Program-made: the position numbers and the translations under genes
Shown here: positions 12,911 to 53,142 of the stretch, piece by piece
Layout: each line of letters starts with the position of its first letter
How positions within the stretch are numbered: the first letter of the stretch is position 1
The notes under the pieces: model-generated
Database searches by the model: none
What the model saw: only the letters and a program-made list of their open reading frames with translations
Told to the model about the DNA's origin: nothing
Source of the DNA: Cyanidioschyzon merolae
Taxonomy: Eukaryota
Assembly (NCBI GenBank): GCA_000091205.1
Contig: AP006489.2
Strand: one strand, 5' to 3'
DNA: 64,000 bases

Positions 12911-12947
12911 GCAGCCTGCTGCCGTCGTGGTATCGACGGCAGGCTGC
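12911..12947. other. Imperfect palindrome/hairpin (about 14-17 bp stem, 5-nt loop) directly abutting the inner boundary of IR1 arm B
   Basis: gcagcctgctgccgtcg tggta cgacggcaggctgc: the left arm is the reverse complement of the right arm apart from a 3-nt (cag) bulge. Arm B begins at ~12950. Confidence 0.6.
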
Positions 12948-12949
12948 GG

Positions 12950-14551
12950 TGCGATATACGCACTACAGTTGATTCGTGGAACCCCATGATCGCTCAAATA
13001 CTGTTGAGGAATACCGTTACCGGTGGATGGGTGCACGTCGCTGCAGCCTTGATGGATTGCTCACCCGAAGCACAGCGGTGTGTTCCTGCGGGGTGAGCAT
13101 CCAGTGCGCGTTCTCCTGGTCACTGATGCATTGTGTTTCTGGACGCAAGTCTGCAGCTTTTCAGCAAGATGCCCAGGCTGATTACGAAACGATTTTCGGG
13201 AACGTTCGCTCGACACAAGGCCGCTGGACGCTCTCGAAGCACTGGTCATACCCAGTGAATAATGGAGGCGTTCGAGTCGTCACACAGAGAGAGAGAGAGC
13301 TCGCGTGCATGATAGCCGGTGGCATCACACACGAGCTGGGCAATGCTTTTCGATTGCCTCGCCAACTGACGTCCGCTCAGCCTTCTGGACACCATGGCGT
13401 GCATCCGACGCTGTTTCATACGATTGTTTCTATTCGTGTCGCAGCAAGCACCCACGCTCGTGATGCATCGATGTCGCCCGGGATTCAGTCACCGATGGGA
13501 ATCGTATAGCGCCGATTCCCGTGCGCACTGCCGGCTTTCGTCGACGGAGCGCAGGAGTTCAGGGCGTGTGCGCAACTTCAAGCCCAGCGCCGAAGGCTAT
13601 CGCGAAACGACGCAAACCTCTCGTCATTTTCTGTTCGAAATCAGTGAAGAACCCGACACTTGCGCGCTTGTTGCCTCCATACGGCCGAAACTGTCGGCGA
13701 CTCCGGTGCGGTGTCCCGAATTCCCGCTGAGTATCGCGTGCATCAACTGTTTGGGCGTTTTTGGCACGCTCTGAATGAAACGGACGCAAGCATCGCCCGC
13801 TGCTGGATGCAGAGCTCGGAGCGTCGCGATTGGTGCTGATAACAGCATTCCATTTTCTGGTATACCCTCTGGTGCCGATCATTCCCAGCTGCCTACCAGA
13901 GAGAATCCCCGGAGATCGAGCAGCTTCATCTGGTTTCTTCCTGGGTCGCTGGCTCCGTGCTCTTGATCTACAGGTACGGCGAGTGCTTCGATGCACCTGG
14001 ATTCGGGATGCACGAACACCACCATCGCGAAGACGTTGTCTTCATCTGGGCTGAACGGGTGCGAATGAGTCTCTTTGGTAGACGCTGGTCCAGATGCTGC
14101 GCAATGTGCATACAGATTGATATTCCGTCCGGTCTTTGACGTCCTCGCAAACACGTCTTCCCGTTTCCTCTCGGTTAACAGCAAGGTGTCTCGCCAGTGC
14201 GCTTTGCGGTGTTGCTCGAATGCTTCGTATTGGTCGCAGATATCTGCCGCTGCTCACTACGGTGGTGGTCGTAAAGCTCCATGCAGAAGAGTCTACGATG
14301 CGATCATGAGCCTTGGTCTGATATTTGCGGTCTCTATCGAACGGACGCAAAAGGTGGCTCGTGCACTCGGACCCCAGGGAGGCACTCTGTGCTGCTTCTG
14401 ATGCGAAGGCCTCTCTTCGCTAGCCAGTAGTGGCGCCATCGAGCCTCTTGGCGACCTTTCCCCAGTCTGCGAAACGCATTCCTTTCGTTGCATACCTGCC
14501 AGAAAAACAAACAAAATCAAACATGGCTATACGTTCCATGTACTTCAAAAA
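12950..14551. repeat. Inverted repeat 1, arm B (reverse complement of 6693-8303)
   Basis: Same mirrored-ORF evidence as arm A. Inner boundary ~12950 (gtgcgatatacgcactacag), outer boundary ~14551 (..cttcaaaaagtcatcg|gactg). Confidence 0.85.
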
Positions 14552-20242: not shown

Positions 20243-20272
20243 TGCTTTTGGGTACATGTCTGCAGTGCGTGT

Positions 20273-20455
20273 TGGTGAAAGGTAGCAGGCGTTTCACGTG
20301 GTAAGAGGCCTGTGTTCAGAGCTTCTCTGACGTACGCTTTGTTATACATTTGCGGTACGTACTGGTGAAAGGTAGCAGGCGTTTCATGTCGTAAGAGGCC
20401 CGTTTTCAGAGCTTCTCTGACGTACGCTTTGTTATACATTTGCGGAGCGGACCGC
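20273..20455. repeat. 2 x ~91-bp tandem duplication in a divergent intergenic region
   Basis: The unit ggtgaaaggtagcaggcgtttca(c/t)gt(g/c)gtaagaggcc..gttatacatttgcgg occurs at 20273 and again at 20364, with 3-4 mismatches. Confidence 0.75.
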
Positions 20456-22852: not shown

Positions 22853-23119
22853 TCACTGTACGGATGGAGCACCACCTGCCGCTGGCATGGGTTGGCCCTC
22901 CTGCAACAGCTCTCCAATACGCTGTACGGCGCCCATGTACTTGAAAACGCAGCGATCCACACAGACACCCTCACCAGTTTGCAACTCGCCGTCGTGATAC
23001 CGCGTCACGCACTTGCGGAAGCATGAATCCGTCATTTTTTGAAACAGGTCTGCGTAAAAGCTCATTTCCCTCCGAGCCAAGTCCACGGGGTTTACCCCTG
23101 CAGCAAGTGCACTAGCCAT
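22853..23119 (-). CDS. small Tim (Tim9/10/13 family, twin CX3C) mitochondrial intermembrane-space chaperone
   Basis: The 88-aa product MASALAAGVNPVDLARREMSFYADLFQKMTDSCFRKCVTRYHDGELQTGEGVCVDRCVFKYMG... has the C-x3-C ... C-x3-C spacing typical of small Tims. ATG at 23119 (cat on the plus strand). It lies 31 nt beyond the end of element copy A, in frame with the element ORF. Confidence 0.7.
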   Translation of the reverse strand: MASALAAGVNPVDLARREMSFYADLFQKMTDSCFRKCVTRYHDGELQTGEGVCVDRCVFKYMGAVQRIGELLQEGQPMPAAGGAPSVQ

Positions 23120-23149
23120 TGACACAGCCAACAACAAACGCCTTTGAAA

Positions 23150-25068
23150 AGAAAAACGCTGCCGCCAGTGGTGCACAGTAGTGGCGGCGAACGCGCCCCG
23201 GACAAGCAGTCTCCAGCTGACGGGCAGACGCATCCCAGCCTTGCTGGGCAGGCCACCCACCACTGGTTTCAACTTTTTCTCATATAGTTGGACTTTGAGA
23301 GGTTGTCCAACAAAGTTCTCTCTTGTCTGCTGTGGAGGTCTTTTCTCAATCGCCGCGCATCTCCTTATATTGACGGCGGCGTTAAAGTCTCGGTTCACAA
23401 ACCGCATACGTTTCTTGCCGTCGTTGGTTGTACTTACGAATGCGAGTAGCCCTCGCACTTTTGTTCTCCTCTCCATTTGCACCTCCGGCAGCGGTCCGTA
23501 CTTTGCTATGTCTTCAGGACTCCCCTGGCGCTTTTCCATCTCGACCCTTTGAAGTGTACACTCCAGCTCATGGTGTGTATCGGACGTTCGGAACTCATCT
23601 ATCCGTATCGTAACAAAACGCCGTGCATTCTCCTTGTACGTTCTTGTCGTTGGAGCTGGCGGAGTCCCTTTGTGGGTCTTCCAGCGCCCCACTCCGTATG
23701 CTACTACGAGCCTCTGACTTTCAAGCTCTCTCAAGGCACTCAACTCATTGAAAAATTCGCGAACGCCCGCTGCTGACCACAATACGGATTCATACGCAAA
23801 CGAGCCCACCGGGGCTTTGTATACTCTTCCCACAGCGCCTCCCAAGGAGCAACATGAACATCCATGCATTTCAGAAAAGCTTCAAAGTCCGCTGCGCGGC
23901 TCGTCACCTTGCTCATAGCTTCCAGGTGCTTCTTCAATCCAGCATTCTCTATCTCGATTTTCTTCCTTGCATTCATTATACCGGATTCTCGGTAGTATCT
24001 CGCTCTCGAGAACCTCAAACGACGCATGTCGTTCTGACGTAATTTACTGTGCGTACCGTATTCCGCACGCTGGGGTACTGCGATGGTTATGATATTTGTG
24101 TTTCCGGGGTCCGCGCCAACGACAAAGTCGTTATTCTCTACCTCTTGCGTCGCAGGATCCTCCTCTTTGTTTTCCTCATGCTTCGCCGCGCCAACGACAA
24201 GGTCGTTATCCTCTACCTCCTGCGTCGCAGGACCCGCCTTCTCCTTGTCTTCATCCTTCGTGACGGGCGCAGCCGAGGGAGGGACTGGCCGGGCTCTCTT
24301 CAACCGCCGATAGTGTATACACAAGGCTACTCCATCGGTTTCAATCATCAAAGTGAACAATTTTTGCTTGCTCACTCTCAAACGTTTAAAATTGAAGATA
24401 TTCTTCCAGTACGTCTCCCGGTTCTCGCCGGCGAAGTCCTCCCTGCTAACGTTGAACTCCGAACAGATCTCCTTCATGATGCCATGAAGGATTCCGGAGT
24501 CGATAGTCCCAAAATGTGACTTGATATTGGACAATGGGACCACGTTGAAGCGCTTCCCCATTAGGAAATCCTTCCGTCTCTCCCACTCTTCATTTGTCTC
24601 TTCACGCAGCATCACCGCTGCCTTGGCTTCGAGCTCTCGGTCCAGAAACACGAAATAGCACAGAATGAGGCGATCGTATCTTTCCTGATCTTTGCTCAAC
24701 TCTGATACCTTGTCTGTTGGATTCGGTAGCCCCAGTACCGCACGATGCTCTTGTATAACCGTACGGATCGCAGAAGCTTCATTCGTGCTCACTTTTGACG
24801 CCTTCTTGTCGACAAATTCGACCTCATCTTCACGCTTGCGATCTTTCATGATGCCATTGATAATCGTCCATTTTCCATTGCGAGAGATGCGCGGGTAGAG
24901 TGCAACCACGGCGCGTATCATGAAACGTTCGAGGTCCATTGTCAAATGGTTCTTCAGGTCCGTGAGGTACTTCTTCGCCCCGTAGGTGTACATATCCCGG
25001 TCACCCTTGTAGCGAGTACCCTCGAAGCTGTAAAAGGGGTGTTTTTCGTGGAGGGTATGCACTAGCAC
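23150..25068 (-). pseudogene. TnpB/Fanzor-like RuvC nuclease, disrupted copy
   Basis: Same protein as copy B, but the ATG of copy B is AGG here (tgatgg versus tgaggg), leaving no in-frame ATG. A 1-bp deletion in a T-run (gcgaatttttcaatgag versus gcgaattttttcaatgag in copy B, near 23756) splits the reading frame into ORFs 23740..25068 and 22853..23869. Confidence 0.65.
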
Positions 25069-26301
25069 ATTTTCCCTCCGCGTGTTCCCTGCGCCAACCC
25101 TCAGGTGACGAATAAAGGTTGCCGAAAACTCCCTCTGGAATCTCGACTGTTTCCATGTGCGTCACATCGCGATACATCTCCCTCGCCAAATGCATCAGTC
25201 CTGACGACGCCCTGGCAATACGCTTGGAGTACGACTAGGCACGTTTTTTGATGGCGCCTCGCAACTTTTCCCTGTACGAATCCTTGATATGTCCAAGAAG
25301 ACCGGCTTTCACTACCATTTCGTCGTACAGGTGTCTTTCTTGCCGCCTTCGACGTAGGGCCTCCCCTCTTCGGTCCTTCTTATCTTCCTTTTTTTCCGGA
25401 CTCGGCACTGTTTTTTGTTTTTTTTCTCTGGCAGCCGGCGACCCTGGGCCTCCAGGATCGTCGACTTGCTTTTTCATAACTTTCCTTTTTTAGATTTTTT
25501 TGAAAAAGAACGTTCTTTGAACGCTTCTGTTATATACTGCGAAAAAACGCTTGAATACACTTGTTTGAGGTTTGAAACACAATTGAAATCAAAACTATAC
25601 TTGGATATGAAGCTCACGAAAATCTGACTTTTACAGCTGAACGACACGCAACTGATCAAGATCGCGTTTCCCTTCAACGGCGGCGGCATGCGCGTCGTGC
25701 CAGTTGACTACTGCCAGCTCTGCCAGATGCACTCACTGACCGCGATGCGTGCACCGCGCGAGACGCTACACGGATCGATGAAGGACACGTGTCCGACGTC
25801 GCATTAGCACATGCGTGTTCTCACCGACGCACTGCAGCGGAAATCAGGTGTCCTAGATCGGAAACTCACGTAGAGTGATCCCCTGCGCTAGGCTCTGTCG
25901 CTGGTGCCGAAACTACTGCCCATCGCCGTACTACCCTAGCATACAAGGGGATGCTGGGGCCTGGCACAAAACTCAGCGATGACTCCAGCACACGCGTAGC
26001 CATCGTAGCATCTTGCGCTTTTGTGGGTAAGGCATGCATCAACCTAGTCATTAGGAGTTTCGATAGTTGTATTTATCGTACACAAACTAGGTGTAGTCGT
26101 GTACCCGAGTACGAATAATATACGTTTATTCCCGATTCTTGTTATGCATGCCGCACGGACGCTGGAATGAGGAACAGATTTGAATTCTGCTTTTATCCGG
26201 CGTCATCGGCGGGCACTGATGACAGTTCAGTATATTGCCATGCTGCCGTCGTTGTCTAACTTATGGTGTCTGCTTCGTTCGAAGGATCCGGTGATCTTGG
26301 T
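23150..26301 (-). mobile_element. TnpB/Fanzor-like nuclease element, copy A (inverted relative to copy B; decayed)
   Basis: The whole region is mirrored at 36619-39787 on the opposite strand; protein-level differences are ~10/650. Outer (3') boundary: identity with copy B ends after ..cagcgtttttcttt at 23150. Inner (5') boundary: high identity ends ~26301 (gcgatgcctc..), then ~70% similarity continues for ~140 bp more. A 1.2-kb AT-richer leader sits upstream of the ORF. Confidence 0.7.
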
Positions 26302-26614
26302 AGAGGCATCGCACACATGTAGCGTGCATATGTAGCACCGCGTTCGACCGACGCATTTCGCCCGGAACGATCGAGGCACCAGCAGCACAAGGCGCTGCAC
26401 CGACCTGAAGGACGGGCGGAGAGGCCCGGCAAGAGTAAATATTGTATAAAGTAGCATATTTAGGAATCTATATGATCCATTTTGCATACGCTGCACGAAA
26501 CGCTTGTCGCACTTGCGAACGCTTTGCAAGCGCTATCCGACAGCGCGTTTCAAGGGCGAACGCGTGCGTCTCGACGTAAAACCCACTGTGTGGAGGCGCT
26601 AGGAGCGCTCTAGA

Positions 26615-28084
26615 ATGCAGTCGCTCGTTGGATCCACTGCAAATAGAGACCCGGATGGCGTGGCAGAAGAGGCGAGACCTGGACACGTTGGTTTCGATCC
26701 GCAGCGCCCCTCGTTCTGTCTACAAGGGGAACGCGAGAAAATCGACGCTGAACGGGCACGGGCTCTCTTCACACCGCTTCGAGATGCAAGCATCGCAACA
26801 ACCTCGGGAACAGAAGCTGATCCGAGCTTTGAACGAGTGTCGCTTTCGGGCAAGTCATTCGATGTAGAGGCGGCGGGCGTTGCTGCGGAGCATATTGCGC
26901 TGTTACGACCTGGTTCGGTGCGGTACCTACAACTGGCGGATGTGATTGCTGGCCAGTCCGAAATCGAGGCCCTGCAGGTGCTGGAGTTGCTCGCAGCAGC
27001 GTTCGCTGCTCATCAAGTGGTAGAGCTGGACCTCAGTGACAATGCACTGGGCGCTAAAGGTGTTCGAGCGTGCGCAGCGCTGTTCCAGCGCTCGGAACGG
27101 CTCGAAAGCCTGATCCTCTGTAACAACGGCCTCGCTGCAGACGCGATCAAGCTCATTGTGGACGCGTTGACGGGATCCGAAAAACGTGTATACCTCAAAA
27201 AACTACATCTCTTCAACAATCTATTGAAAGACGAGGGTGCCCTCGCTTTGGTGCCGCTTATCGAGCGAGCACCACTGTTGGAGGATTTCCGTTTCGCCTC
27301 GCTGCGGGTCTCTCGAGGCGGGAGCATTGCCGTGGCTGAAGCTCTGACCCGCGTAGCGCCAACGCTTAGACGCCTCGATATGACCGATAATGTTATCGGC
27401 AAGGACGGCGCGAAAGCGCTTGCCCAGCTCCTCGAACAACAGACGCACCTCGAGGAATTGTACCTGCGAGATTGCCTGCTCACCGATGCGGGTGCACGCT
27501 GTATTTTAGAGGCACTCATGCGACAGACGGAGCAACCGCGCCTTCGCGTACTGGACTTGTCAGGAAACGAGCTCATCGGCGCCGCAACTGGTTCACTGTT
27601 AGGCAAATTCCTTGAACATTGCGCCCCGACGCTAACACATCTGCGCCTCGACGAGAACGAACTGGGTGACGGGGGGGCACTTGCGATCGCCAATGCATTG
27701 GCCAGGGATCCGCAGCGTTTTCGACTCGTTGAACTCTCACTATATCTGAACGATATTGGCGGCCGCGCTGCTTTCATGCTCGTCCAGCGCTGTGTTCGGA
27801 TTGCAAGTATGTGCGTCTTGAATCTGAACGGGAATCGTCTGGGATGCATCGCGCTAGAGCACATAGAGCGACTGGTTGCTGGTACACCTCTTGCATCCAG
27901 TTTTGTGGATCTGGACGAAAACAATGAATCCGAGGACGAAGATGCCACCTCCGATATCTTCCAGCAACTCCGCATCGTGGAGGGATCAGACTCGGCCGAA
28001 GCCGAAGCCGAAGCCGACGCAATCACCGCACAGTTGCACGATCTGCAGGTCACCACAGCACCCAATGCCAGCGAGGCGTCGTGA
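26615..28084 (+). CDS. RanGAP-like leucine-rich-repeat protein (RNI-type LRRs followed by an acidic tail)
   Basis: Repeated RNI-type LRR units (LDLSDNALGAKGVRACAALF.., LILCNNGLAADAIKLIVDAL.., LDMTDNVIGKDGAKALAQLL.., LDLSGNELIGAATGSLLGKF.., LRLDENELGDGGALAIANAL..) followed by an acidic stretch DENNESEDEDATSD...AEAEAEADA, as in Ran GTPase-activating proteins. ATG at 26615. Confidence 0.55.
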   Translation: MQSLVGSTANRDPDGVAEEARPGHVGFDPQRPSFCLQGEREKIDAERARALFTPLRDASIATTSGTEADPSFERVSLSGKSFDVEAAGVAAEHIALLRPGSVRYLQLADVIAGQSEIEALQVLELLAAAFAAHQVVELDLSDNALGAKGVRACAALFQRSERLESLILCNNGLAADAIKLIVDALTGSEKRVYLKKLHLFNNLLKDEGALALVPLIERAPLLEDFRFASLRVSRGGSIAVAEALTRVAPTLRRLDMTDNVIGKDGAKALAQLLEQQTHLEELYLRDCLLTDAGARCILEALMRQTEQPRLRVLDLSGNELIGAATGSLLGKFLEHCAPTLTHLRLDENELGDGGALAIANALARDPQRFRLVELSLYLNDIGGRAAFMLVQRCVRIASMCVLNLNGNRLGCIALEHIERLVAGTPLASSFVDLDENNESEDEDATSDIFQQLRIVEGSDSAEAEAEADAITAQLHDLQVTTAPNASEAS

Positions 28085-30689: not shown

Positions 30690-33600
30690 TGTACAACAAC
30701 CTCGCAGGCACAAGAGTTACCAGCGAAAACAATGTAAACGCGTCACACTTGACGAGGCCCCAAGTAGCACGGCCTCCTCCGCAGACTCCGGAAGGCTAAA
30801 GCGCCTGCGCACAGCGCTGAAACACGAGCCGCGCACGCATCGCAGCGGCACGCATTGCACGCCTGCTGTCCTCGGCACGCATCGCAGCGGCCTGCGTGTA
30901 TCCTGGATTCTACGACATGCGTCTGCGCGATGCGTCATAGCACCCCAGAATAGGCTGAGACTGGCACGAATGGCGACGGATAGCGCATCCTATCGTGGTA
31001 AAGGCACGGCAACGAGAGGTACAGAGACTTGAAAGGCGAATGATCTGGGCGTTGGGCAGTATATTTTTTGCGCGTGCATGCTTGTGTGCGGCTTGACATG
31101 TACGCGTTGCGGGGGTCTTGGGCGCGCTCCGGCCTGCACTGGCTATCAGGTCCGAGCGCGGCAAATGGGAAACTGCCGGGGGAATATGCGTGGTGGTGCG
31201 GAACGATGGGCACGCTCTCGGGTGCTGATAACCATGGCGTCTGCGGGGATCACTGCTTTATGTCAGCGGTTCTGTGCGCCGAAACACCCGAGTGTTCCCG
31301 GTCTGCAGTGCGCATTCGTTCATGCGATGATACATGAGAATGTCGCATAATGCAGCACGATTGACGTTAATCATTTGAATAGCCAAAGCGTCCCGAGTCT
31401 ATGTATATGACGCTCCAGCGTTCGTGGTGCGTTCAGTCATGCGGTACCGTTCCAGTACCTTGCACCTGGAGCGAATCCAACGCCCTCTCTTCAAGCCGTT
31501 GAAGTGCTCGTTGGAAGTTGTTAGCGTTCTAGCAAAATACCCACACTGATGACGAAATCTGTCGAAATCACACCCTTGAAAACTTGCTCGATACGGATCC
31601 GTTGTGCGCTATGGAATCACGGAACATTTTCGAATGTTCATCGAGATGAAGTTTCGGTGCAGATAGTGCTTTCGTGTATTGTTTCTGGTAGAATTATACC
31701 ATAGCCAGCCGCTCATTTTCGATAGCCTCGCCACCTGACGTTCGGGTATCATACCACGCATTATCTCGTGCAACTGGCTCTGTTTTAGAAGCTTATACTC
31801 TACCAGTTTCAGCGTGCACCCGCGCTCATGGTGCGTGCATGACATGCCGAACAAATCTGTGGGGATCATAGAGCATCGATCATTGCAGTCAATGTATGCT
31901 TTCGCGGAACGAGCAGGCATGCAGGCCTTGCGCGCTACCGCAGGTCCAGCGTCGAGAGCTCCCTTCACCGAACGACGCGACATGTCGGTCGTTTCCTGTT
32001 CCACCTCGTTGAACAAGATGACGAACGCACTGTTCTTGACTTTGTGCAATCGTTACTGTTGGTGGCCAGAGCGTGGTCTCATGTACACGCCCAAGAAATC
32101 GCCCAATCATCCATCAAGACGCTCGTGTATTCTCTGAATCGTAGAATCACATCGATCAGTCGAACGAGTTATGGTACGCGATGGGGAACGTACAACGCCA
32201 ACGGGGTGTGCTTCATAAATTGCTCGATTTTCGGAACGTATTCCTTGTTGAATTGTTTCAGAGGAACGGGATGTACGACGATTTCAGAATGGTACTTCAG
32301 CTCCGACACTTTTTCTATATCTCCTGGTCATTTTGTGGAAGAATCACTGTTATCTTCGTACGGCGCTTGCTTTGACTCGTTCTCTTCCTGGCCGGGTAAC
32401 ATGGGTGCATGCGCTTTACTACATATCCGTATTATTCCGTGGTATTTTTGCACAACGGGTGATCCCTCGCACTGAATCTCGCCTATTGCATAGGTATATC
32501 TACAATGGTTTAAATACGCTCTCGTCATCGTAACCGTCGCGAGTACGTCCACAGATCGGAACGCGGCGTGCCGCTTTCCTCATGCACGAGAAAAGATGTA
32601 GCGGAGTAGTTCAGAATAGGTAAAGATACAGAAAAATTCGTGTAGGGGCTGAAGTATGGAGATTAATACAATTCTCGGTTGATCCGCGAGCGTGAGAATT
32701 GCGTTTGACAACAGGGAGAACGGCTTTCTCTCGATTTATCTGGGGAGAAACAGCTAAGACGAAGAGCAGCTTAACGCCAGTCTCAGCCGCGCACTCCTTG
32801 ATCGCTTTTTAGTGATGAAAAGGGACGTTCTCTAAGAGCAAGAGACAGGAATATGCGATGGGGTAGCCTCGATGCGTGCTTCAACGAAGGATGAGATGCC
32901 GCATGATCCACTTCTTTGGGGAGTTGTAGGCGGGCACACGACAGTATCGACATTATGACTGAAGTTGTCGTCATTCTCGCTTGCTTCTTTTTAACGAGCA
33001 GAATTTTGACCCTTTTTGAGTACCCATGTAGAGTTCAATCAAATATCCCGAAAAAGATCTCATCGAGTGAGAAGAATGCGCGCCGATCCCGCAAGAAGTG
33101 TTGGCGTTGCAGCACGAAGACGTTCGTGTGTTCTTCCACCCGCAACGGTCTCTCACAGCAGCGAACTATCTTTTTTCGTCCGTTCATGTCTCTTCATCAT
33201 TATGCATATCGACGGTATGGAATCTTTAATTATGTATCTTAATTGACAGTATTTTCTAGAGAACGCTTTTCGTGGAATGCTTTGACGAAGTCACCGTCCT
33301 GAAGATAGGAACTAAGAAGTTCTGCCTCGGGTGCACGACGTTCAGATTAAGGATGCTGAGAAGGATTGCTCACCTACCTGCCTAATCAAGAATGACCGAC
33401 ATGGAAAAGCAGCGCCGATTTTCGGAAGCTAGCTGTGACAGCGTGCGTCTTTCGGCGAAACTTTTCCAGTCTATAGGATACGTCACTTTTACTGAATGTT
33501 TGCAAGAAATAGCAAACAAAAACAAATAGGATATGCAGGTATAGGTGCTCCAGAATACACTGCTCGGAATATAACAGTGGCATCCCGAACGGATCCATGC

Positions 33601-34896: not shown

Positions 34897-36618
34897 GGTA
34901 GTGTCAGTAGACAACTGCGTTGCCAGTGCTGCCGCGTTGCTGGCGACACGCCCGCCATTGCGTTGCGCGCTATGCCCACATGGCGTTAAGATCGGTGTGC
35001 TCTCGTCTTTCCACTCAAGTCTGTGACACTCCTGCTGCGCTTTAGAGCAGGGGATCGAAATCATGAAGCAATGTACAGTATAGAGCGTAGACGAATTGCG
35101 TGTAGGGTATATTTTTTTAATGAACAGTTCAAGAAAGACCGCATTCCTCATTCGGTTGAGTCATAACCCAGTACTCAGATGAATGACGAGCACAGAAAGA
35201 GGATATGCGCTCCGCGCCAAAAATCGATACGCTCAAAGACTGGGTGCGGTCAATGGCAGAAAACGAGTCGTCGATCACCTTGCAGAATGCAAACGTGTCG
35301 ATAGTAGCCGCGACGGTAGTCTCTGTTTCTCAAGTGCGTGTTCGTGTGCTCTGAAAGACTGGGATACAGTCTCAAAAAAGGAGTCCTAGTTCACGCACGA
35401 ACAGCTTTGACCGAAATCGCAACTACAACAAAGTTCCTCGAGAGTTGCCATCGATATGAAGCACAGCAACGTCGATTTCTTTTTCCAGACGATGAGAGTT
35501 TCTTCAGATGAAACGGTTGGAATGTATTTGGGTATTCGCGGAGAAGGAGCCATTTTAATATACGATGGAGCTCGAAGAGAAGGCTAGTACAACGGCACCA
35601 ACCACTTTGTCGGATCATAGCAGACTTTTCCCTTGACGTCTAATAATACCCTTCTATGGGACAACGTGGTATTTCACCATTCCTCTTCCGTTTGAGCATT
35701 TGCAGATTATATCGGGCAAGAGCTGCTTTTCATTCTTCCGTAAACTCCGCGGTTCAACCCCAACGAATGAAAGTTTCATATCGTGAAACGAAAGGATCGC
35801 TCCGCTGGGCGCATTGCTGGAGCGCTCAGCAAACTATGCCACACACAGAGACATATTTTTGTCTTTCTTCCACAAGTCTTTCACCATCCAAGCAGGTCCT
35901 CACCTTAAGACATAAACAAGTGCATTCATTCTCGAGAAATAAAAAAACCAAGGCATGAGCTCGTGTGCAGTCTTCAGAAGATCGAGACGAAGAGCAGGCA
36001 ACGGAGTTCTTCGATGATAGACAAGCACGGAGAGGCGACAGAGCACCAAATGGCATAGAGGGCGCGACTTCAAGGAATACTCGCTTTGGTGAGTCTAAGC
36101 AGTGGCAATAACCCCTTGAGTTCGAGAACCGAGAATTTAATGCAGCTATTTATATCAGGAAATGTGCGGTGCCTAGGACGAGACCCGCGGAGCTGATACG
36201 AGACAAGTTTGTGGAGCAGTCTCTCGAGGTCGAATCGTAAAAGGAGAAACTGAAGCCGATCGCAGGATCGGTCGAAAAAGGCTGGGAGTCGTCTGTACTT
36301 AGGTATTAACTTACCCTACGTAGTTGCGCGACCTGTTTGTTTCACTGGCATGTATGCTCTAGCGATAGCCCGTACGTTCCGCAGCAATATTACTGGGAGT
36401 GAAAAAACAGCAGGCAGTCATCGAACGTTCGGGAGCGTATGAATGGCAGGGTACGGTTAAGCTCAAGGTTCGGCGCTTGCACAACTCCATAACGGCGAGG
36501 GTCGTGCCAGTGATCCGACAGGGTACACCAGCTGGCAGTATGTGATTTTGTCATGCGCCCCGATCCTGCCAGGCGAAATGCAAGGGTCAGCCGTCAAGGT
36601 ACATTTAGACGCAGCATG

Positions 36619-39600
36619 CGCGATGCCTCTACCAAGATCACCGGATCCGTCGAACGAAGCAGACACCATAAGTTAGACAACGACGGCAGCATGGCAATAT
36701 ACTGAACTGTCATCAGTGCCCGCCGATGACGCCGGATAAAAGCAGAATTCAAATCTGTTCCTCATTCCAGCGTCCGTGCGGCATGCATAACAAGAATCGG
36801 GAATAAACGTATATTATTCGTACTCGGGTACACGACTACACCTACTTTGTGTACGATAAATACAACTATCGAAACTCCTAATGACTAGGTTGATGCATGC
36901 CTTACCCACAAAAGCGCAAGATGCTACGATGGCTACGCGTGTGCTGGAGTCATCGCTGAGTTTTGTGCCAGGCCCCAGCATCCCCTTGTATGCTAGGGTA
37001 GTACGGCGATGGGCAGTAGTTTCGGCACCAGCGACAGAGCCGAGCGCAGGAGATCACTCTACGTGAGTTTCCGATCTAGGACACCTGATTTCCGATGCAG
37101 TGCGTCGGTGAGAACACGCATGTGCTAATGCGACGTCGGACACGTGTCCTTCATCGATCCGTGTAGCGTCTCGCGCGGTGCACGCATCGCGGTCAGTGAG
37201 TGCACCTGGCAGAGCTGGCAGTAGTCAACTGGCACGACGCGCACGCCGCCGCCGTTGAAGGGAAACGCGATCTTGATCAGTTGCGTGTCGTTCAGCTGTA
37301 AAAGTCAGATTTTCGTGAGCTTCATATCCAAGTATAGTTTTGATTTCAATTGTGTTTCAAACCTCAAACAAGTGTATTCAAGCGTTTTTTCGCAGTATAT
37401 AACAGAAGCGTTCAAAGAACGTTCTTTTTCAAAAAAAGTCTAAAAAAGGAAAGTTATGAAAAAGCAAGTCGACGATCCTGGAGGCCCAGGGTCGCCGGCT
37501 GCCAGAGAAAAAAAACAAAAAACAGTGCCGAGTCCGGAAAAAAAGGAAGATAAGAAGGACCGAAGAGGGGAGGCCCTACGTCGAAGGCGGCAAGAAAGAC
37601 ACCTGTACGACGAAATGGTAGTGAAAGCCGGTCTTCTTGGACATATCAAGGATTCGTACAGGGAAAAGTTGCGAGGCGCCATCAAAAAACGTGCCTAGTC
37701 GTACTCCAAGCGTATTGCCAGGGCGTCGTCAGGACTGATGCATTTGGCGAGGGAGATGTATCGCGATGTGACGCACATGGAAACAGTCGAGATTCCAGAG
37801 GGAGTTTTCGGCAACCTTTATTCGACACCTGATGGTTGGCGCAGGGAACACGCGGAGGGAAAATGTGCTAGTGCATGCCCTCCACGAAAAACACCCCTTT
37901 TACAGCTTCGAGGGTACTCGCTACAAGGGTGACCGGGATATGTACACCTACGGGGCGAAGAAGTACCTCACGAACCTGAAGAACCATCTGACAATGGACC
38001 TCGAACGTTTCATGATACGCGCCGTGGTTGCACTCTACCCGCGCATCTCTCGCAATGGAAAATGGACGATTATCAATGGCATCATGAAAGATCGCAAGCG
38101 TGAAGATGAGGTCGAATTTGTCGACAAGAAGGCGTCAAAAGTGAGCACGAATGAAGCTTCTGCGATCCGTACGGTTATACAAGAGCATCGTGCGGTACTG
38201 GGGCTACCGAATCCAACAGACAAGGTATCAGAGTTGAGCAAAGATCAGGAAAGATACGATCGCCTCATTCTGTGCTATTTCGTGTTTCTGGACCGAGAGC
38301 TCGAAGGCAAGGCAGCGGTGATGCTGCGTGAAGAGACAAATGAAGAGTGGGAGAGACGGAAGGATTTCCTAATGGGGAAGCGCTTCAACGTAGTCCCATT
38401 GTCCAATATCAAGTCACATTTTGGGACTATCGACTCCGGAATCCTTCATGGCATCATGAAGGAGATCTGTTCGGAGTTCAACGTTAGCAGGGAGGACTTC
38501 GCCGGCGAGAACCGGGAGACGTACTGGAAGAATATCTTCAATTTTAAACGTCTGAGAGTGAGCAAGCAAAACTTGTTCACTTTGATGATTGAAACCGATG
38601 GAGTAGCCTTGTGTATACACTATCGGCGGTTGAAGAGAGCCCGGCCAGTCCCTCCCTCGGCTGCGCCCGTCACGAAGGATGAAGACAAGGAGAAGGCGGG
38701 TCCTGCGACGCAGGAGGTAGAGGATAACGACCTTGTCGTTGGCGCAGCGAAGCATGAGGAAAACAAAGAGGAGGATCCTGCGACGCAAGAGGTAGAGAAT
38801 AACGACTTTGTCGTTGGCGCGGACCCCGGAAACACAAATATCATAACCATCGCAGTACCCCAGCGTGCGGAATACGGTACGCACAGTAAATTACGTCAGA
38901 ACGACATGCGTCGTTTGAGGTTCTCGAGAGCGAGATACTACCGAGAATCCGGTATAATGAATGCAAGGAAGAAAATCGAGATAGAGAATGCTGGATTGAA
39001 GAAGCACCTGGAAGCTATGAGCAAGGTGACGAGCCGCGCAGCGGACTTTGAAGCTTTTCTGAAATGCATGGATGTTCATGTTGCTCCTTGGGAGGCGCTG
39101 TGGGAAGAGTATACAAAGCCCCGGTGGGCTCGTTTGCGTATGAATCCGTATTGTGGTAAGCAGCGGGCGTTCGCGAATTTTTTCAATGAGTTGAGTGCCT
39201 TGAAGGAGCATGAAAGTCAGAGGCTCGTAGTAGCATACGGAGCGGGGCGCTGGAAGACCCACAAAGGGACTCCGCCAGCTCCAACGACAAGAACGTACAA
39301 GGAGAATGCACGGCGTTTTGTTACGATACGGATAGATGAGTTCCGAACGTCCGATACACACCGTGAGCTGGAGTGTACACTTCAAAGGGTCGAGATGGAA
39401 AAGCGCCAGGGGAGTCCTGAAGACATAGCAAAGTACGGACCGCTGCCGGAGGTGCAAATGGAGAGGAGAACAAAAGTGCGAGGGCTACTCGCATTCGTAA
39501 GTACAACCAACGACGGCAAGAAACGTATGCGGTTTGTGAACCAAGACTTTAACGCCGCCGTCAATATACGGAGATGCGCGGCGATTGAGAAAAGACCTCC

Positions 39601-39787
39601 ACAGCAGACAAGAGAGAACTTTGTTGGACAACCTCTCAAAGTCCAACTATATGAGAAAAAGTTGAAACCAGTGGTGGGTGGCCTGCCCAGCAAGGCTGGG
39701 ATGCGTCTGCCCGTCAGCTGGAGACTGCTTGTCCGGGGCGCGTTCGCCGCCACTACTGTGCACCACTGGCGGCAGCGTTTTTCTTTA
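36619..39787 (+). mobile_element. TnpB/Fanzor-like nuclease element, copy B (intact ORF)
   Basis: Reverse-complement twin of 23150-26301. 5' boundary ~36619, with diverged homology back to ~36470. 3' boundary 39787, immediately after ..caccactggcggcagcgtttttcttt. A GC-rich imperfect hairpin (gccgcca N14 tggcggc, 39746-39773) lies 15-40 nt inside the 3' end. The two copies share no terminal inverted repeat. Confidence 0.7.
37832..39787 (+). CDS. TnpB/Fanzor-like RNA-guided-nuclease-family protein (RuvC-I/II/III, degenerate zinc finger), ~651 aa to the element end. There is no stop codon; the ORF continues in frame into the aminopeptidase gene downstream.
   Basis: RuvC-I: ..[20 protein letters not shown] (D331). 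TS/zinc-finger region: [23 protein letters not shown]. RuvC-III: [19 protein letters not shown] (D572), the classic DxNAAxNI motif. The order and spacing match TnpB/Cas12/Fanzor. The ATG at 37832 is preceded by an in-frame TGA. The ORF track lists the read-through as 37832..41404. Confidence 0.65.
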
Positions 39788-39829
39788 GACAGGCTTTTGT
39801 TTTCGCTGCCGTCGTCCTCCAGAAGCAAA

Positions 39830-41404
39830 ATGAACGCTGAACCAGGTGTTCCCAACTCGGACCACAACCGCACACGACAAATGCCTGGTGGGAACACAAC
39901 CGAGCAGGACGCACTCGCCGATCGCTTGCTTCGCTTTCTCGATGCGTCACCGTCTCCGTACCACGCAGTCGAGACCGCAAAACTGCTTCTAGAAACAGCT
40001 GGCTATACTGAGCTTCGGGAGGACTGTTCCTGGTTGGGGCGAGTTCATCCCGGAGGACGCTATTATACGACACGCAACGAGTCAACAATCGTTGCCTTTC
40101 GAGTGGGGCGAGCGTTTCACGTCGACGCGGTGAACGGCGGTGAGCTCCGACTCGTTGGCGCGCACACCGACTCGCCGTGCTTTCGAGTCAAACCACGAAG
40201 TCGCGTGAGCGACGCAAATTATGAAAAAGTTGCAGTCGAGTGCTACGGGGGCGGCCTCTGGTACACCTGGTTCGATCGCGACCTCAAGTGTGCTGGGCGG
40301 GTCATCTGGCGCTGTGCGTCCCCAACGGACCCGGCACAGGGCACCAGCCGATCGACCAGTTGGCAGTGCACACTCGTTCATGTACGGGAACCCATTTTGA
40401 GAATTCCATCATTGGCAATCCACTTAGATCGAGAAGTGAATCAGGGCTTCGCCCCGAACCGACAAACGCATTTGGTGCCGGTTGCCGCCACCGCATTGAA
40501 CAGAACAAAGTTGCCACAGTGTCAAGAGCGCCATGCCACTGCACTTACGGGAGCAGTTATTCACACTCTTCAACAGGACATCATGCCCGTTAAAGAAGAT
40601 CCGATGAGCATCACGCGTGATGCAGGCGGTATCGTTATTCATGACTTTGACCTCTGTTTGGCAGACGCACAGCCAGCGAGCATTGGTGGCGTTCAGCGGG
40701 AGTTCATCTTCGCTTCGCGTCTAGACAACCTGTTTTCCTGTTTCGCGGCACTCGAAGCGCTCCTCTCCCTGGATTCCGAGGCTGGGGTGGAAAGCGGTGC
40801 CGAGTCGGCGGTCTGCATGGTTGCGCTTTTCGACCATGAGGAGTGCGGTAGCGGTAGTGCGCAAGGCGCTGCGTCTCCGCTTGTCAGCGACCTGATTCGA
40901 CGTGTTCTAGCGTGTTTATGGACGGGGAAAACGGATGCAGGCGCTTTCGAGGACGCTGTTCAATACACGATCCGCCGCTCATTCTTGATCAGTCTCGATA
41001 TGGCGCATGCTGTCCATCCAAACTACGCGGAAAAGCATGAGAGTGGCCATCAGCCGCTCTTAGGCCATGGCCCTGTTCTGAAAGTCAACGCAAACCAGCG
41101 GTATGCAACTGACGGGTGGAGCGCTCATCTCCTCCGCGCTGTTGCCGAATGCTGTGATTCACCTATACCGCTGCAGGAGTACGTTGTGCGGAACGATATG
41201 CCTTGCGGCAGCACCATTGGACCCATTGTAGCTGCTGGTACCGGCGTACGAACTGTTGATGTAGGTGCACCAAGTCTTTCAATGCACTCGATTCGGGAAA
41301 TGGCGCATGTACGAGATCTATGGTACACCGTCAAGCTTTTGCAAGCGTTCATGCGATGTTTCGGTGAGGTCCGGGCGTCGCATAATACAGCGTGCGTGAC
41401 GTAG
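39830..41404 (+). CDS. DNPEP: aspartyl aminopeptidase (M18 family)
   Basis: ..LLRFLDASPSPYHAVETAKLLLETAGYTELREDCSWL..TRNESTIVAF..LRLVGAHTDSPCFRVKPRS..YGGGLWYTWFDRDL..LRIPSLAIHLDREVN..MAHAVHPNYAEKHE..NDMPCGSTIGPI..LSMHSIREMA aligns along its whole length with human DNPEP. Start taken as the ATG at 39830 (MNAEPG); the ATG at 39881 is an alternative. It begins 43 nt after the element end, in the same frame as the element ORF. Confidence 0.85.
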   Translation: MNAEPGVPNSDHNRTRQMPGGNTTEQDALADRLLRFLDASPSPYHAVETAKLLLETAGYTELREDCSWLGRVHPGGRYYTTRNESTIVAFRVGRAFHVDAVNGGELRLVGAHTDSPCFRVKPRSRVSDANYEKVAVECYGGGLWYTWFDRDLKCAGRVIWRCASPTDPAQGTSRSTSWQCTLVHVREPILRIPSLAIHLDREVNQGFAPNRQTHLVPVAATALNRTKLPQCQERHATALTGAVIHTLQQDIMPVKEDPMSITRDAGGIVIHDFDLCLADAQPASIGGVQREFIFASRLDNLFSCFAALEALLSLDSEAGVESGAESAVCMVALFDHEECGSGSAQGAASPLVSDLIRRVLACLWTGKTDAGAFEDAVQYTIRRSFLISLDMAHAVHPNYAEKHESGHQPLLGHGPVLKVNANQRYATDGWSAHLLRAVAECCDSPIPLQEYVVRNDMPCGSTIGPIVAAGTGVRTVDVGAPSLSMHSIREMAHVRDLWYTVKLLQAFMRCFGEVRASHNTACVT

Positions 41405-42331
41405 GTGCACAGATGGGGAATTACCGTTCGAAACGCGCACAAATGATGAGCTGACCGTGAATGATACGTAAAGAGAGTCCGTTGCACGATCTGCTGTCGA
41501 TTTCTGTACGCTACGAGCTACAGGCAGACTTTTATAGCGCACCCGTTTCGCGGAGACATCCAGCATTGCATATGCAGGGAAAACCTGTTCCACGAAACCG
41601 TCGCAAAGCTTGTTCGCTTTCGCTCTTGATCAAAAAAGCCCAGGTCACGAGCGCGGTCGTGCAAGACGCCAGCAACAACCCACCATGGTCAAAAGATGGA
41701 TCCGCAGCTTGATCGAGCAACATCCGATCGAGGTTCGCCGCTGTCAAGACACCTTTGACGCCACGAATCGACCGCTGTGGTGCGTCTGTCTCCAAAGTGG
41801 CTCCAGAAGTCAGGCTCGCCGGCAAAAAAGCATCCTCGATACCAGTAATCGACCGCAACGGGAGGTGCTGCATACGACTCTGTCCGAGAGAAACCAAATC
41901 GAATCCGTCGTTTCATCAGCAGCTTCAGTTGGTCGCGGGACAACGCAAAGCCCTTCTTACGTCCAGAAAAGCTCGTGCGGAATCAGCAGGGACACAGAAG
42001 CGACAGCCGTGGCGACAGCAGGGAGCGCAGCTTGCCGTGCAGCAGCCCCTGAAAGCCAGCGCTCGTCTCCGTCTGCGCCGTACGAGCTGACTGTTACGTG
42101 CAGCGAAGCCACAAAATACCAGCGATGGGTCAGTCGAGTTTTGCACGTAAAAAGATGCAAAAAGAGGAGCACATAAAGACTTCTCTAGCGCGGATAGACC
42201 GTGCGAAGGTAAGCTGTACGACGCTCTACCGAGAGCGCTCAAAAGTACTCCTGCCACAAACTGCTGTCCACCAGCAAATCTCTAGCGAATCGCAGCGACC
42301 TTGTACCACGCTTTCAAAGACGTTGCTCATC

Positions 42332-51549: not shown

Positions 51550-51800
51550 GGCTCGGTCGCTACGACTCGCTACGAGCCAAGCCAGATGCACAAGCTGACT
51601 CTCTGCACACACGGAAACCTGCGAGCCTTAGAGAAAAACGCCTAGAAGCTAACCGCTTCTCGCGCGAAGCCAAGTCCAACTTGCCGTGAACAAACCTACC
51701 TTTCCCGATCTCCAAGGGTAGACGCGTCTCAGGAAGTTGCTTTCAGACCGTTCAGCGTTGGCAGAAGCATACCTGGTGTCCAAGAGCAGGCTGTAGCAGG

Positions 51801-52385
51801 ACGTACCAGATCGATCGATGAATCGCTGCGCGGGAGGCGTCTGACCTGCAAGATCAATCGAAAAGCAACTTGTTCTGGATATTTATGTATAAATAGGATT
51901 TTACTGGATGATCCTGACGTACCAGATCGATCGATGAATCGCTGCGCGGGAGGCGTCTGACCTGCAAGATCAATAGGCAAGCAACTTGTTCTGGATATTT
52001 ATGTATAAATAGGATTTTACTGGATGATCCTGACGTTACGATCGATCGATGAATCGCTGTGCGGGAGGCGTCTGACCTGCAAGATCAATAGGAAAGCAAC
52101 TTGTTCTGGATATTTATGTATAAATAGGATTTTACTGGATGATCCTGACGTTACGATCGATCGATGAATCGCTGTGCGGGAGGCGTCTGACCTGCAAGAT
52201 CAATCGAAAAGCAACTTGTTCTGGATATTTATGTATAAATAGGATTTTACTGGATGATCCTGACGTTACGATCGATCGATGAATCGCTGTGCGGGAGGCG
52301 TCTGACCTGCAAGATCAATAGGCAAGCAACTTGTTCTGGATATTTATGTATAAATAGGATTTTACTGGATGATCCTGACGTTACG
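51801..52385. repeat. Minisatellite: 5 tandem copies of a ~116-bp unit, each containing TATAAATAGG
   Basis: The unit acgt(a/t)ac(c)agatcgatcgatgaatcgctg(c/t)gcgggaggcgtctgacctgcaagatcaat(c/a)g(a/g)aaagcaacttgttctggatatttatgtataaataggattttactggatgatcctg starts at 51801, 51917, 52033, 52148 and 52263. The array ends with a truncated sixth start at ~52378. Confidence 0.9.
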
Positions 52386-53142
52386 GAAGCATCCGAGAAC
52401 GCACGTCATTTTGCGGCTGTATATCCGGACGTGTTTCTTCAAACATCCTGCGAGGGTGCGAGCGTTGCTAGTCGTCATCGTGAAACCCACGTCAGTCCCG
52501 ATGCAGATGCTCCATCCGTTCAAGGTTTCCTCTTCAAAGTTATCCAGAGGAAAAGAGACTTTATCCAGCGAGTCCAGATCTGGATATCCACTCGATACCG
52601 CTGGACGCGCCGCCGTTCTTGTCGCGTGCAGGCAGAACGGCTCTGCGATACCCATTCATAAACTTGCTTCAAGAGCTGGATGCCGAAGCGTGCGCGTGAA
52701 CAAGGTCGCACCGTATGCAACGCTGGGGAAACTGCGACTTGAGTTCGCACCAATTGTTCCAATTGTCCTTCGCATGCGCAATTCGTTGTGCCGGACTCCT
52801 TTTTACACAAGTGCATGACGACGGGCGTTACCGTGCCTCAGCTTGTTTCCCTATCCAGCCAGTCTAGTTCAGCCGCGCTCTCCACTTGGTTCAACCTGGA
52901 AACTGCATTGCAATGGCAACGTAAAGCTTCGAAGCACTAACCAACACCCTGCATACTCAAGGCATGTATCGGCGAACGCACCGAACCTGCTTCTTAGCAA
53001 GCAACCTAGCCGCTCAAAGTCGACGGCAAGCGGTGCGCTGGCTGCACACGGGCCAGTCGGCGCTAGACTGGTGTCCGCGGACGCGCTCGTTTATCGCAAA
53101 CGAGAGTCGCGCTGACGCTTGCTGGCTTCGACCTGGTTCTCG

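Follow-up and report, generated by a model that had tools for sequence, protein, structure and literature searches.

Two near-identical inverted repeats in a 64,000-nt stretch of Cyanidioschyzon merolae DNA (contig AP006489.2; the window) are, with a probability that we put at about 0.8, decayed copies of the Fanzor1 DNA transposon family CMe-1A, in which the ancestral nuclease would have worked with an RNA (fRNA) transcribed from the 3' part of the element, and the interiors of the two copies appear from their sequence to have been homogenised by gene conversion or recombination. Fanzor1 proteins are eukaryotic RNA-guided nucleases under development as compact genome editors, and a lineage not yet described would deserve attention; the lineage treated here has been on record since 2013. 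C. merolae is a thermo-acidophile in which homologous recombination works efficiently and whose tiny genome is completely finished, with 20 chromosomes in strain 10D, and it is therefore convenient for asking what a Fanzor does for its transposon in vivo. The experimental template for such work is the 734-aa family consensus or a 752-aa environmental copy and not the locus in the window, where the open reading frame (ORF) originally flagged is a pseudogene that has been truncated and that continues in frame into a host gene. What is added here is the delimitation of the likely guide-RNA region and of the terminal hairpin.

Family membership and Fanzor1 features

The flagged element, copy B, occupies 36617..39786 on the plus strand, and copy A occupies 23148..26315 on the minus strand, each delimited by repeat search and by MAFFT pair alignment against the other. 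The copies differ at 30 places over ~3170 nt (~99% identity), with 28 substitutions and two 1-nt indels, in agreement with a preliminary description of this DNA that had reported two inverted, near-identical copies of ~3.15 kb. The same description had noted an absence of terminal inverted repeats (TIRs), and comparison of the ends likewise revealed none linking them. CMe-1A was described as a family of ~150 copies averaging ~80% identity, with a consensus of 3169 bp, a protein of 734 aa, and a 5' segment of 635 bp equal to TE-N2_CMe (Bao and Jurka, 2013, Mobile DNA 4:12; Repbase). Positions 689-3169 of this consensus align to window positions 37233-39794 and 25699-23139 with 84-88% identity, and by this alignment both repeats are copies of CMe-1A. 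Exact protein matches, through CMG032C and RanGAP, gave C. merolae 10D as the host, and a kinetoplastid host, at first suggested by intron-less, GC-rich genes, was thereby rejected. The repeats share with the published family the host, the N-terminal protein sequence, the motifs, a length of ~3.17 kb and the lack of TIRs, and the published consensus too ends inside the terminal hairpin. The family has thus been known since 2013 and is not new; the earlier expectation that it was probably unannotated holds for the ORF, which has no gene model in the public protein collection, but not for the family, already published as CMe-1A.

Unlike the published form, the window copies are both pseudogenised, form an apparently converted inverted pair, and lack the 635-bp TE-N2_CMe module. 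Consensus positions 1-640 have no match in them; a different module of ~570-650 bp stands in its place (36617..37183 on the plus strand in copy B) and is also present in family loci L036, L017, and L072. By this comparison the window copies belong to a subfamily with a 5' module unlike that of the published consensus. Related stretches have also been confirmed in hot-spring metagenomes (n=190).

Single-sequence searches of Pfam, NCBIfam, and PDB gave no match for the protein. A profile built from 19 homologs and searched against PDB, on the other hand, matched the Parasitella Fanzor1 PpFz1 (9cf0) with an E-value of 7.8e-18, in an alignment that brings together the DPG, DEFRTS, and RD-NAA blocks, and GtFz1 with an E-value of 0.02. 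In a Foldseek search of PDB with an AF2 model (pLDDT 62.5; core 70-90), the best seven matches were all Fanzor1 (SpuFz, PpFz, GtFz; E-values down to 6e-10), and these were followed by Cas12 proteins, including Cas12o and Cas12f. According to this model, the protein has the Fanzor/TnpB fold (WED-REC-RuvC), and the original assignment, by which a transposon-like repeat carries a RuvC nuclease of TnpB/Fanzor type, is upheld by the family profile and Foldseek together and withstands, at the profile level only, the refuting check set in the preliminary description. The characterised Fanzor1 proteins (SpuFz1, 8gkh/9ceu; PpFz1, 9cf0; GtFz1, 9cer) resemble it in overall fold (Foldseek E-values 6e-10 to 5e-6), in the DPG, IDEFRTS, and NRD motif blocks, and in a RuvC-II site that appears to be rearranged. 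However, identity to them is only 13-15%, for a C. merolae protein known here from its sequence and model.

The motifs first noted by eye are present on the plus strand of copy B, namely GADPGNTN (38816-38839), IDEFRTS (39332-39352), and QDFNAAVNI (39542-39568), and the numbering of D331 and D572 is correct. The codon of the RuvC-I residue D331 lies at 38822-38824 and that of the RuvC-III residue D572 at 39545-39547. The canonical RuvC-II position is taken by AYG, with the G470 codon at 39239-39241, and an alternative glutamate, E503, is encoded at 39338-39340. No family member departs from D331, G470, E503, and D572, nor from any residue of A468-Y469-G470. Invariant AYG together with E503 in DEFRTS agrees with the rearranged RuvC-II described for Fanzor proteins, in which an inert Gly or Pro occupies the canonical Glu position and an alternative conserved Glu is found elsewhere (Jiang et al., 2023). 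The Fanzor1 motif D-X(125,275)-[TS][TS]-X-X-[Zn finger]-X(5,50)-RD (Bao and Jurka, 2013) can be followed through most of its length: 175 residues separate D331 from T506/S507 (codons 39347-39352), and the RD pair is kept in copy A and the family and reads QD in copy B (Q571 codon, 39542-39544). Between TS and RD the C4 zinc finger (OrfB_Zn_ribbon/TNB) was not found; this clade keeps only His, His, and one Cys (...LLAFVST), a further difference from the characterised Fanzor1 proteins, as the Zn-ribbon cysteines are largely replaced. Pfam TNB gave sub-threshold matches, in distant relatives only (E-value 4.8e-4; 20.7 bits against a cut-off of 26.3). PF26935, which is listed for homologs, is a domain of unknown function only (DUF8286).

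Bacterial TnpB with its omega-RNA (IS200/IS605) is likewise a single-RuvC nuclease with the order D...[TS][TS]...RD, and its guide-RNA scaffold overlaps both the gene, at the 3' end, and the element, at the right end, as does the candidate here. In contrast to TnpB, the C. merolae element has a eukaryotic host, an NLS-like N-terminus, and an apparently rearranged catalytic Glu; it has no TnpA partner in the window or the inspected loci and no Pfam OrfB match at threshold. Just before RuvC-I, at 38673..38820 (plus strand), copy B carries two tandem 75-nt coding units (...ATQEVE(D/N)ND(L/F)VVGA...), the number of which differs between family copies.

Layout and decay of the two copies

In copy B, the 5' module is followed at 37184..37455 (plus strand) by the start of the Fanzor core (GCATCGCGGTC...), which is common to most family copies and is an AT-richer stretch (GC 0.44) of either 5' untranslated sequence or promoter. 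The 1.2-kb leader that was initially proposed was not confirmed as such: it is composed of a non-coding 5' region of 839 nt and of ~375 nt of degraded N-terminal coding sequence. The family start codon is the ATG at 37456, from which a remnant of the native N-terminus (MKKQVDD...KKQK...RRRRQERH, with a basic NLS-like stretch) extends over 37456..37698 on the plus strand and agrees with the N-terminus of the CMe-1 protein as published. Both copies carry an in-frame TAG at 37696-37698 and, relative to the consensus and to the intact relative L001, have lost 2 nt at ~37814 (within 37810..37818, plus strand); these two lesions remove ~125 N-terminal residues, including the NLS-like stretch. Reassignment of the stop codon as the reason for the in-frame TAG was rejected, as the 2-nt deletion stays and host genes terminate normally.

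The ORF had been taken to be intact, with 651 aa from the ATG at 37832 to position 39787, and none of this could be sustained. The ATG at 37832 is a fortuitous internal Met, and the Fanzor1 part of the frame, N-terminally truncated, covers 37832..39733 on the plus strand. The native stop position of the family (39734..39736), TAG or TAA in 22 of 35 copies, is CGG in copy B, because of which the frame stays open from 37832 to 41404 (1190 aa) and runs into a host aspartyl aminopeptidase gene (BAM79567, 524 aa; 39830..41404, plus strand) that lies outside the element. Copy A has lost its native stop as well, and its frame runs into the host Tim10 gene (BAM79563, 88 aa; 22853..23119, minus strand), the ATG of which lies 1 nt past the 3' end of the copy. 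Copy A has in addition a 1-nt deletion near 23755/23756, opposite position 39178 of copy B, which splits its ORF into pieces of 442 and 338 aa. Copy B carries R571Q in the RD motif. From these lesions, both window copies are judged to be dead or crippled. Fanzor-Tim10 and Fanzor-aminopeptidase fusions have already been spread by automated gene callers.

A truncated protein may still be made from the internal start in copy B, where the base at 39178 holds the catalytic half in frame. That copy B makes a working or domesticated Fanzor1 in this way, perhaps joined to the aminopeptidase by read-through, is very unlikely. It is the only copy to keep that base, and with it the WED/RuvC half in frame, while a frameshift is present in copy A and in four wild orthologs; D331, E503, and D572 are intact and the frame is open for 1190 aa. 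Such a protein would nevertheless be deprived of the ~125 conserved N-terminal residues with their basic NLS-like stretch and of the Arg of a strictly conserved RD motif; its native stop is mutated away, the aminopeptidase begins only at 39830 in the reference annotation, and the in-frame state is not kept in wild strains.

The family dN/dS of 0.33 shows that the protein was under selection in the past. The ancestral element, by analogy with Fanzor1 and TnpB systems that have been characterised, would have encoded a nuclear-targeted Fanzor1 of ~734 aa. This protein would have been a single-RuvC endonuclease with a rearranged site, composed of the Asp in DPG, the Gly at the canonical RuvC-II position, the alternative Glu in DEFRTS, and the Asp in RD-NAA.

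Origin of the near-identity between the copies

The identity of the two copies collapses within the element at both ends. At the 5' edge, 36536..36616 of copy B (plus strand) lies outside the 99% tract and is homologous to the edge of copy A (~26316-26399) and to the independent copies L017 and L072; copies A and B are 56% identical here, against a mean of 30% and a maximum of 45% in a random control. At the 3' end, the tail of copy B at 39787..39819 (plus strand), which holds the 3' arm of the terminal hairpin and a tail in common with the independent copy L027, shows 16 differences from that of copy A over 33 positions (P~4e-24 if the divergence were 1%). The element tract is ~3.17-3.28 kb long, copy B ends ~11 nt upstream of the host ATG at 39830, and no extended homology was seen in the pair alignment beyond the copies. 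Segmental inverted duplication was ruled out for this pair, as the flanks are without identity and the edges are graded. A second inverted pair in the window (6704-8302 and 12946-14546) has sharp edges, and segmental inverted duplication is possible there. Diverged relics lie at 7021-8089 and 31540-32100 of the window.

Because the 99% tract sits inside older insertions whose extreme ends are ~50-56% alike, ectopic gene conversion or recombination between the two inverted repeats would have made the interior of these insertions uniform. On the alignments, gene conversion from one old insertion to the other accounts best for the 99% identity, and the donor could also have been a third copy elsewhere in the genome. 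Orthologous copies are found at both sites in wild strains that are ~1.2% diverged, with mosaic SNP patterns, and the differences between A and B are mostly private to one copy.

The preliminary description had proposed a recently active family, which the edges, the wild-strain orthologs, and the state of the family do not support: in only 12 of 84 family loci do the catalytic motifs lie in a single open frame, and a single locus is full-length. A fresh insertion of copy A or B from an active CMe-1A master, with the 99% identity reflecting young age, would account for an identity that stands out over 3.17 kb from the family average of ~80%, and for flanks free of the extended homology that a large segmental duplication would leave. 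Yet such an insertion would hardly share its inactivating lesions with the other copy or differ from it so sharply in the 3' tail and 5' edge; copies with mosaic alleles at both sites in the wild strains and a mostly decayed family speak against it as well, and we consider it quite improbable.

An inversion between the copies is possible, as three metagenome contigs pass from the inner flank of copy A through one element into the outer flank of copy B. Two attempts to check for the inversion with Tim10- and RanGAP-anchored contigs gave no confirmation, because assemblies break at the repeat. It has also been considered whether the inverted pair is an active recombination substrate, whose copies would evolve in concert and whose gene-bearing segment of 10.3 kb, situated between them, would be flipped; in this reading, the end of the family's candidate guide RNA would lie preferentially a short way ahead of co-oriented host start codons. 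An active substrate of this kind is regarded as unlikely. In its most ambitious version, a Fanzor1 still functional at another place in the genome would be directed by these 3' ends to make the breaks that drive homing-like gene conversion; if true, eukaryotes would thereby have a counterpart to the TnpB-assisted retention of transposons.

The conserved 3' end

A conserved region without codon periodicity covers 39600..39819 on the plus strand of copy B and includes a terminal hairpin at 39764-39815. The codon-position periodicity (0.08/0.07/0.19) vanishes from ~39600, while conservation continues to ~39815, against a variability of 0.58 in the flank. The hairpin occurs in most copies, and its inner stem exists in two mutually incompatible, self-complementary forms (compensatory subtypes); a shuffle test of the hairpin was biased by the way in which the loop was anchored. 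RNAalifold on the whole 3' block returned 3 pairs only, because of register shifts between the hairpin subtypes. Helices upstream of the hairpin in a hand-built 3' structure showed no covariation beyond shuffle controls and are not claimed as structural elements, and a search of Rfam gave no match.

The fRNAs of Fanzor systems are located at exactly the same 3' position (Jiang et al., 2023), and by this analogy the conserved region with its hairpin is likely to be an fRNA (guide-RNA) scaffold, its place in the element being one more likeness to the characterised Fanzor1 systems. An fRNA transcribed from the 3' ~200 nt of the element would have been loaded onto the ancestral Fanzor1. It would overlap the end of the ORF and finish in the long hairpin at the element boundary, and the guide would come from the adjacent flank. 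As the copies carry different 5' modules, their 5' junctions yielded no TAM or target motif.

Alternatively, the hairpin may act in transposition as a signal in the DNA. In this tentative reading, to which we give appreciably less weight, the hairpin and conserved 3' end would be recognised as DNA by a transposase of the rolling-circle or single-strand kind (Helitron2- or IS200/IS605-like) supplied in trans, and would not be a guide scaffold. The 3' ends are constant and the 5' ends heterogeneous or truncated, there are no TIRs, and a subterminal 3' hairpin is present. The same pattern was described for the Helitron2-type Fanzor1 elements CRe-1/2/3 (Bao and Jurka, 2013). These non-autonomous Chlamydomonas elements likewise encode Fanzor1 only, and the subterminal 3' hairpin with 5' truncation and 3' overabundance is a Helitron2-type trait that the C. 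merolae family displays. It differs from them in an ORF without introns, and no asymmetric terminal inverted repeat was evident when the copy ends were compared. To our knowledge, there is no Helitron partner in C. merolae. The stems are, moreover, rich in G-T pairs, which are tolerated only in sense-strand RNA, and neither the window nor the inspected loci showed a RepHel or TnpA gene. TnpB and Fanzor systems use the same end for both purposes, and a scaffold and a transposition signal could coexist.

Fanzor1 identity and family membership

Repeat search and pairwise alignment recovered the two inverted, near-identical copies of the preliminary description at 36617-39786 (plus strand; copy B) and 23148-26315 (minus strand; copy A). 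They are 99% identical: of the 30 differences in ~3170 nt, 28 are substitutions and two are 1-nt indels. As had been stated, no terminal inverted repeats join the element ends, all quoted protein motifs are present, and the numbering of D331 and D572, counted from the ATG at 37832 in copy B, is right. The protein had also been called TnpB/Fanzor-type, with the lack of a profile hit as the observation that would count against the call. On their face, single-sequence searches against Pfam, NCBIfam, and PDB sequences, which gave no match, did so; a 19-sequence family profile, however, matched Fanzor1. A homolog search retrieved 69 relatives, with JGI metagenomes as the main source, and in the 19-sequence alignment D331 (DPG), A468-Y469-G470, E503 (DEFRTS), and D572 (RD-NAA-NI) are invariant. 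The profile matched the solved Parasitella parasitica Fanzor1 (PpFz1; 9cf0) in two stretches (E = 7.8e-18), in which DPGR, LIDEFRTS, and NRD..A..N align residue for residue, and matched the Guillardia Fanzor1 at E = 0.02. Foldseek with an AlphaFold model (mean pLDDT 62.5; catalytic core 70-90) also bears out the call: ranks 1-7 are SpuFz, PpFz, and GtFz (E 6e-10 to 5e-6), and Cas12o and Cas12f come next. The motif order agrees with the Fanzor1 definition D-X(125,275)-[TS][TS]-X-X-[Zn finger]-X(5,50)-RD (Bao and Jurka). The C4 zinc ribbon has degenerated in this clade, and Q replaces the R of the RD motif in copy B. The invariant AYG and the DEFRTS glutamate would agree with the RuvC-II rearrangement reported for Fanzors. 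The assignment of both repeats to the Fanzor1 family is correct.

The flanking ORFs are exact C. merolae 10D proteins (CMG032C, RanGAP, Tim10, and aspartyl aminopeptidase) of a 584-kb chromosome. One Fanzor1 family, CMe-1A, is already catalogued for C. merolae: its ~150 copies are ~80% identical to a consensus of 3169 bp, its protein has 734 aa, and TIRs are absent (Bao and Jurka, 2013). When the published consensus and protein (Bao and Jurka, 2013, supplement) were compared with the window copies, consensus positions 689-3169 aligned to both at 84-88% identity, and the N-terminus of the published protein was matched by an interrupted upstream ORF at 37456; the copies are therefore members of this known family. 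In contrast to the consensus, they lack its first 640 bp (TE-N2_CMe) and bear another 5' module, which is also found in three independent metagenome copies.

Decay of the open frames

Alignment to an intact 752-aa relative (L001/P0001) mapped the lesions of the copies. The ORF of copy B had been regarded as intact, yet both copies share an in-frame TAG (37696-37698) as well as a deletion of 2 nt near 37814, with a loss of ~125 N-terminal residues that include a basic KKQK...RRRRQ stretch; the methionine codon at 37832 is internal and follows the frameshift by chance. Nor does the ORF end at 39787, as had been proposed: the frame from this ATG stays open to 41404 (1190 aa). The native stop, TAG or TAA in 22 of 35 family copies, is CGG here (39734-39736), so that the frame passes the element end, entering the aminopeptidase gene in copy B (annotated start 39830) and Tim10 in copy A (annotated start 23119, 1 nt beyond the element). 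The copy A frame is itself broken in two by a 1-nt deletion. Among 84 fetched loci, only 12 have a single open frame across the catalytic motifs, and only one is full length; most family copies are now dead. The dN/dS among open copies is ~0.33, and the protein was therefore under selection while the family grew.

Because the element frame continues without a stop into the host gene, metagenome gene callers label fusions of the Fanzor C-terminus as 'TIM10' or 'aspartyl aminopeptidase' [P0142, P0147 (326 aa), P0138 (228 aa), P0133 (669 aa), and P0127 (580 aa)]; such names are an annotation artefact that is spreading through databases. Just 5' of the RuvC-I aspartate codon, a 75-nt coding unit occurs twice in tandem in the window copies (38673-38820); other family copies (L005, L043, L050, and others) have one to three such units.

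Origin of the near-identity and other repeats

The 98-99% identity had been taken as a sign of recent family activity, which finds no support in view of the many dead copies and of edges that have diverged inside the element. Family homology exceeds the identical tract, reaching ~36536 at the 5' side (in common with metagenome loci L017 and L072) and ~39819 at the 3' side, where a hairpin 3' arm and tail are common to L027. In the 3' tail, copies A and B differ at 16 of 33 positions, against ~1% expected from the core (P~4e-24), and at the 5' edge they are 56% identical, compared to a mean of 30% and a maximum of 45% in random controls. Fresh transposition is an unlikely origin, because a copy made by it would match uniformly to the very ends. 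Hot-spring metagenomes hold near-identical orthologs of both sites, with unique flanks ~1.2% off the reference. The sites that distinguish A from B show a mosaic pattern in these orthologs, and most of them are private to a single reference copy; only B has the base at 39178 by which its frame stays open. On these sequence comparisons, the 99% identity is most simply explained by two old inverted insertions that underwent ectopic gene conversion with each other.

An inversion-type join was counted in three JGI-assembly contigs. Contigs L008, L009, and L033 (also L059 and L012) read reverse-complemented 27600..26316, one Fanzor element, then 39802..42329, an order that links the inner flank of copy A to the outer flank of copy B and that is expected with the 10.3-kb segment 26316-36616 flipped relative to 10D. 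Since the remaining contigs all end at the repeat, this order may reflect either a true inversion polymorphism or the route that an assembler took through the repeat.

A second inverted pair (6704-8302, plus strand; 12946-14546, minus strand) is 99-100% identical with sharp edges, and its 3' ends point inward, the reverse of the first pair. Within it lies a much older relic, a strongly decayed RuvC half of Fanzor type (tblastn 7021-8089; ~30% aa identity to the homologous protein P0054). Two further Fanzor relics lie in the window. That at 31540-32100 (minus strand), in a lower-GC stretch, has 39% aa identity to P0054 residues 493-671 (E = 4e-29) vs. ~32% to CMe-1-type proteins, and is probably derived from a different Fanzor1 lineage; only one Fanzor family is listed for the C. 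merolae genome (Bao and Jurka). A CMe-1A-type 3'-half fragment at 35903-36351 (plus strand), with 66-71% DNA identity to 39400-39760, precedes copy B by ~200 nt in the same orientation, and L017 and L072 repeat this head-to-tail layout (upstream 3' end, ~110-nt spacer, 5' module). About six ~115-nt units form a tandem array at 51800-52499.

The 3' region and the 5' modules

Across 35 independent copies, variability in clear coding sequence is 0.08, 0.07, and 0.19 at codon positions 1, 2, and 3. Codon periodicity is gone from ~39600 with conservation still high; past the native stop, variability is ~0.21-0.24 to ~39815, and 0.58 in the flanks. In most copies a long hairpin occupies the final ~50 nt (mean z -1.7; z below -2 in 15 of 35), with two inner-stem versions, TTCGA/TCGAA and TTTTC/GAAAG, each self-complementary and mutually incompatible. 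A loop-anchored arm-swap test, biased by the choice of anchor, gave 82% pairing vs. 50% with arms exchanged among copies. Subtype-specific consensus folds have one common architecture; no covariation was found in the upstream helices predicted for the 3' region, which had no match in Rfam. The region matches Fanzor guide RNAs (fRNAs) and TnpB omega-RNAs in position and layout, from which we infer that the 3' end of an intact element would encode a candidate guide-RNA scaffold, with the adjacent flank as guide. The hairpin would also be compatible with a function in transposition at the DNA level, as the C. merolae copies have constant 3' ends and heterogeneous 5' ends, like the Helitron2-type Fanzor1 elements of Chlamydomonas; the many G-T pairs in the hairpin would favor a sense-strand RNA.

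Both window copies finish 1-11 nt before a co-oriented host start codon (39819-39830; 23117-23121). In a crude, ORF-based count over the 35 independent loci, at least one of them a duplicate, 25 have their nearest downstream ORF in the same orientation and 10 in the opposite one, and in 11 this ORF starts within 150 nt.

At the other end, an imperfect short inverted repeat (36619-36633, CGCGATGCCTCTACC; 37177-37191, GGTGCACGCATCGCG) flanks the window-specific 5' module, a hint, possibly due to chance, that this module was itself inserted at the 5' end of the core. TE-N2_CMe (consensus 1-640) adjoins Fanzor cores upstream in forward orientation, upstream inverted, or downstream of the 3' end (L003, L020-L023, L031, L039, L043, L045, L069, and others), and behaves as an independent element that pairs with Fanzor units rather than as a constant 5' component of them. 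In the window, a 90-nt direct repeat pair (20248-20427) includes TTCAGAGCTTCTCTGA, a sequence that L002 and L004 also have in the 5' flank of their Fanzor copies.
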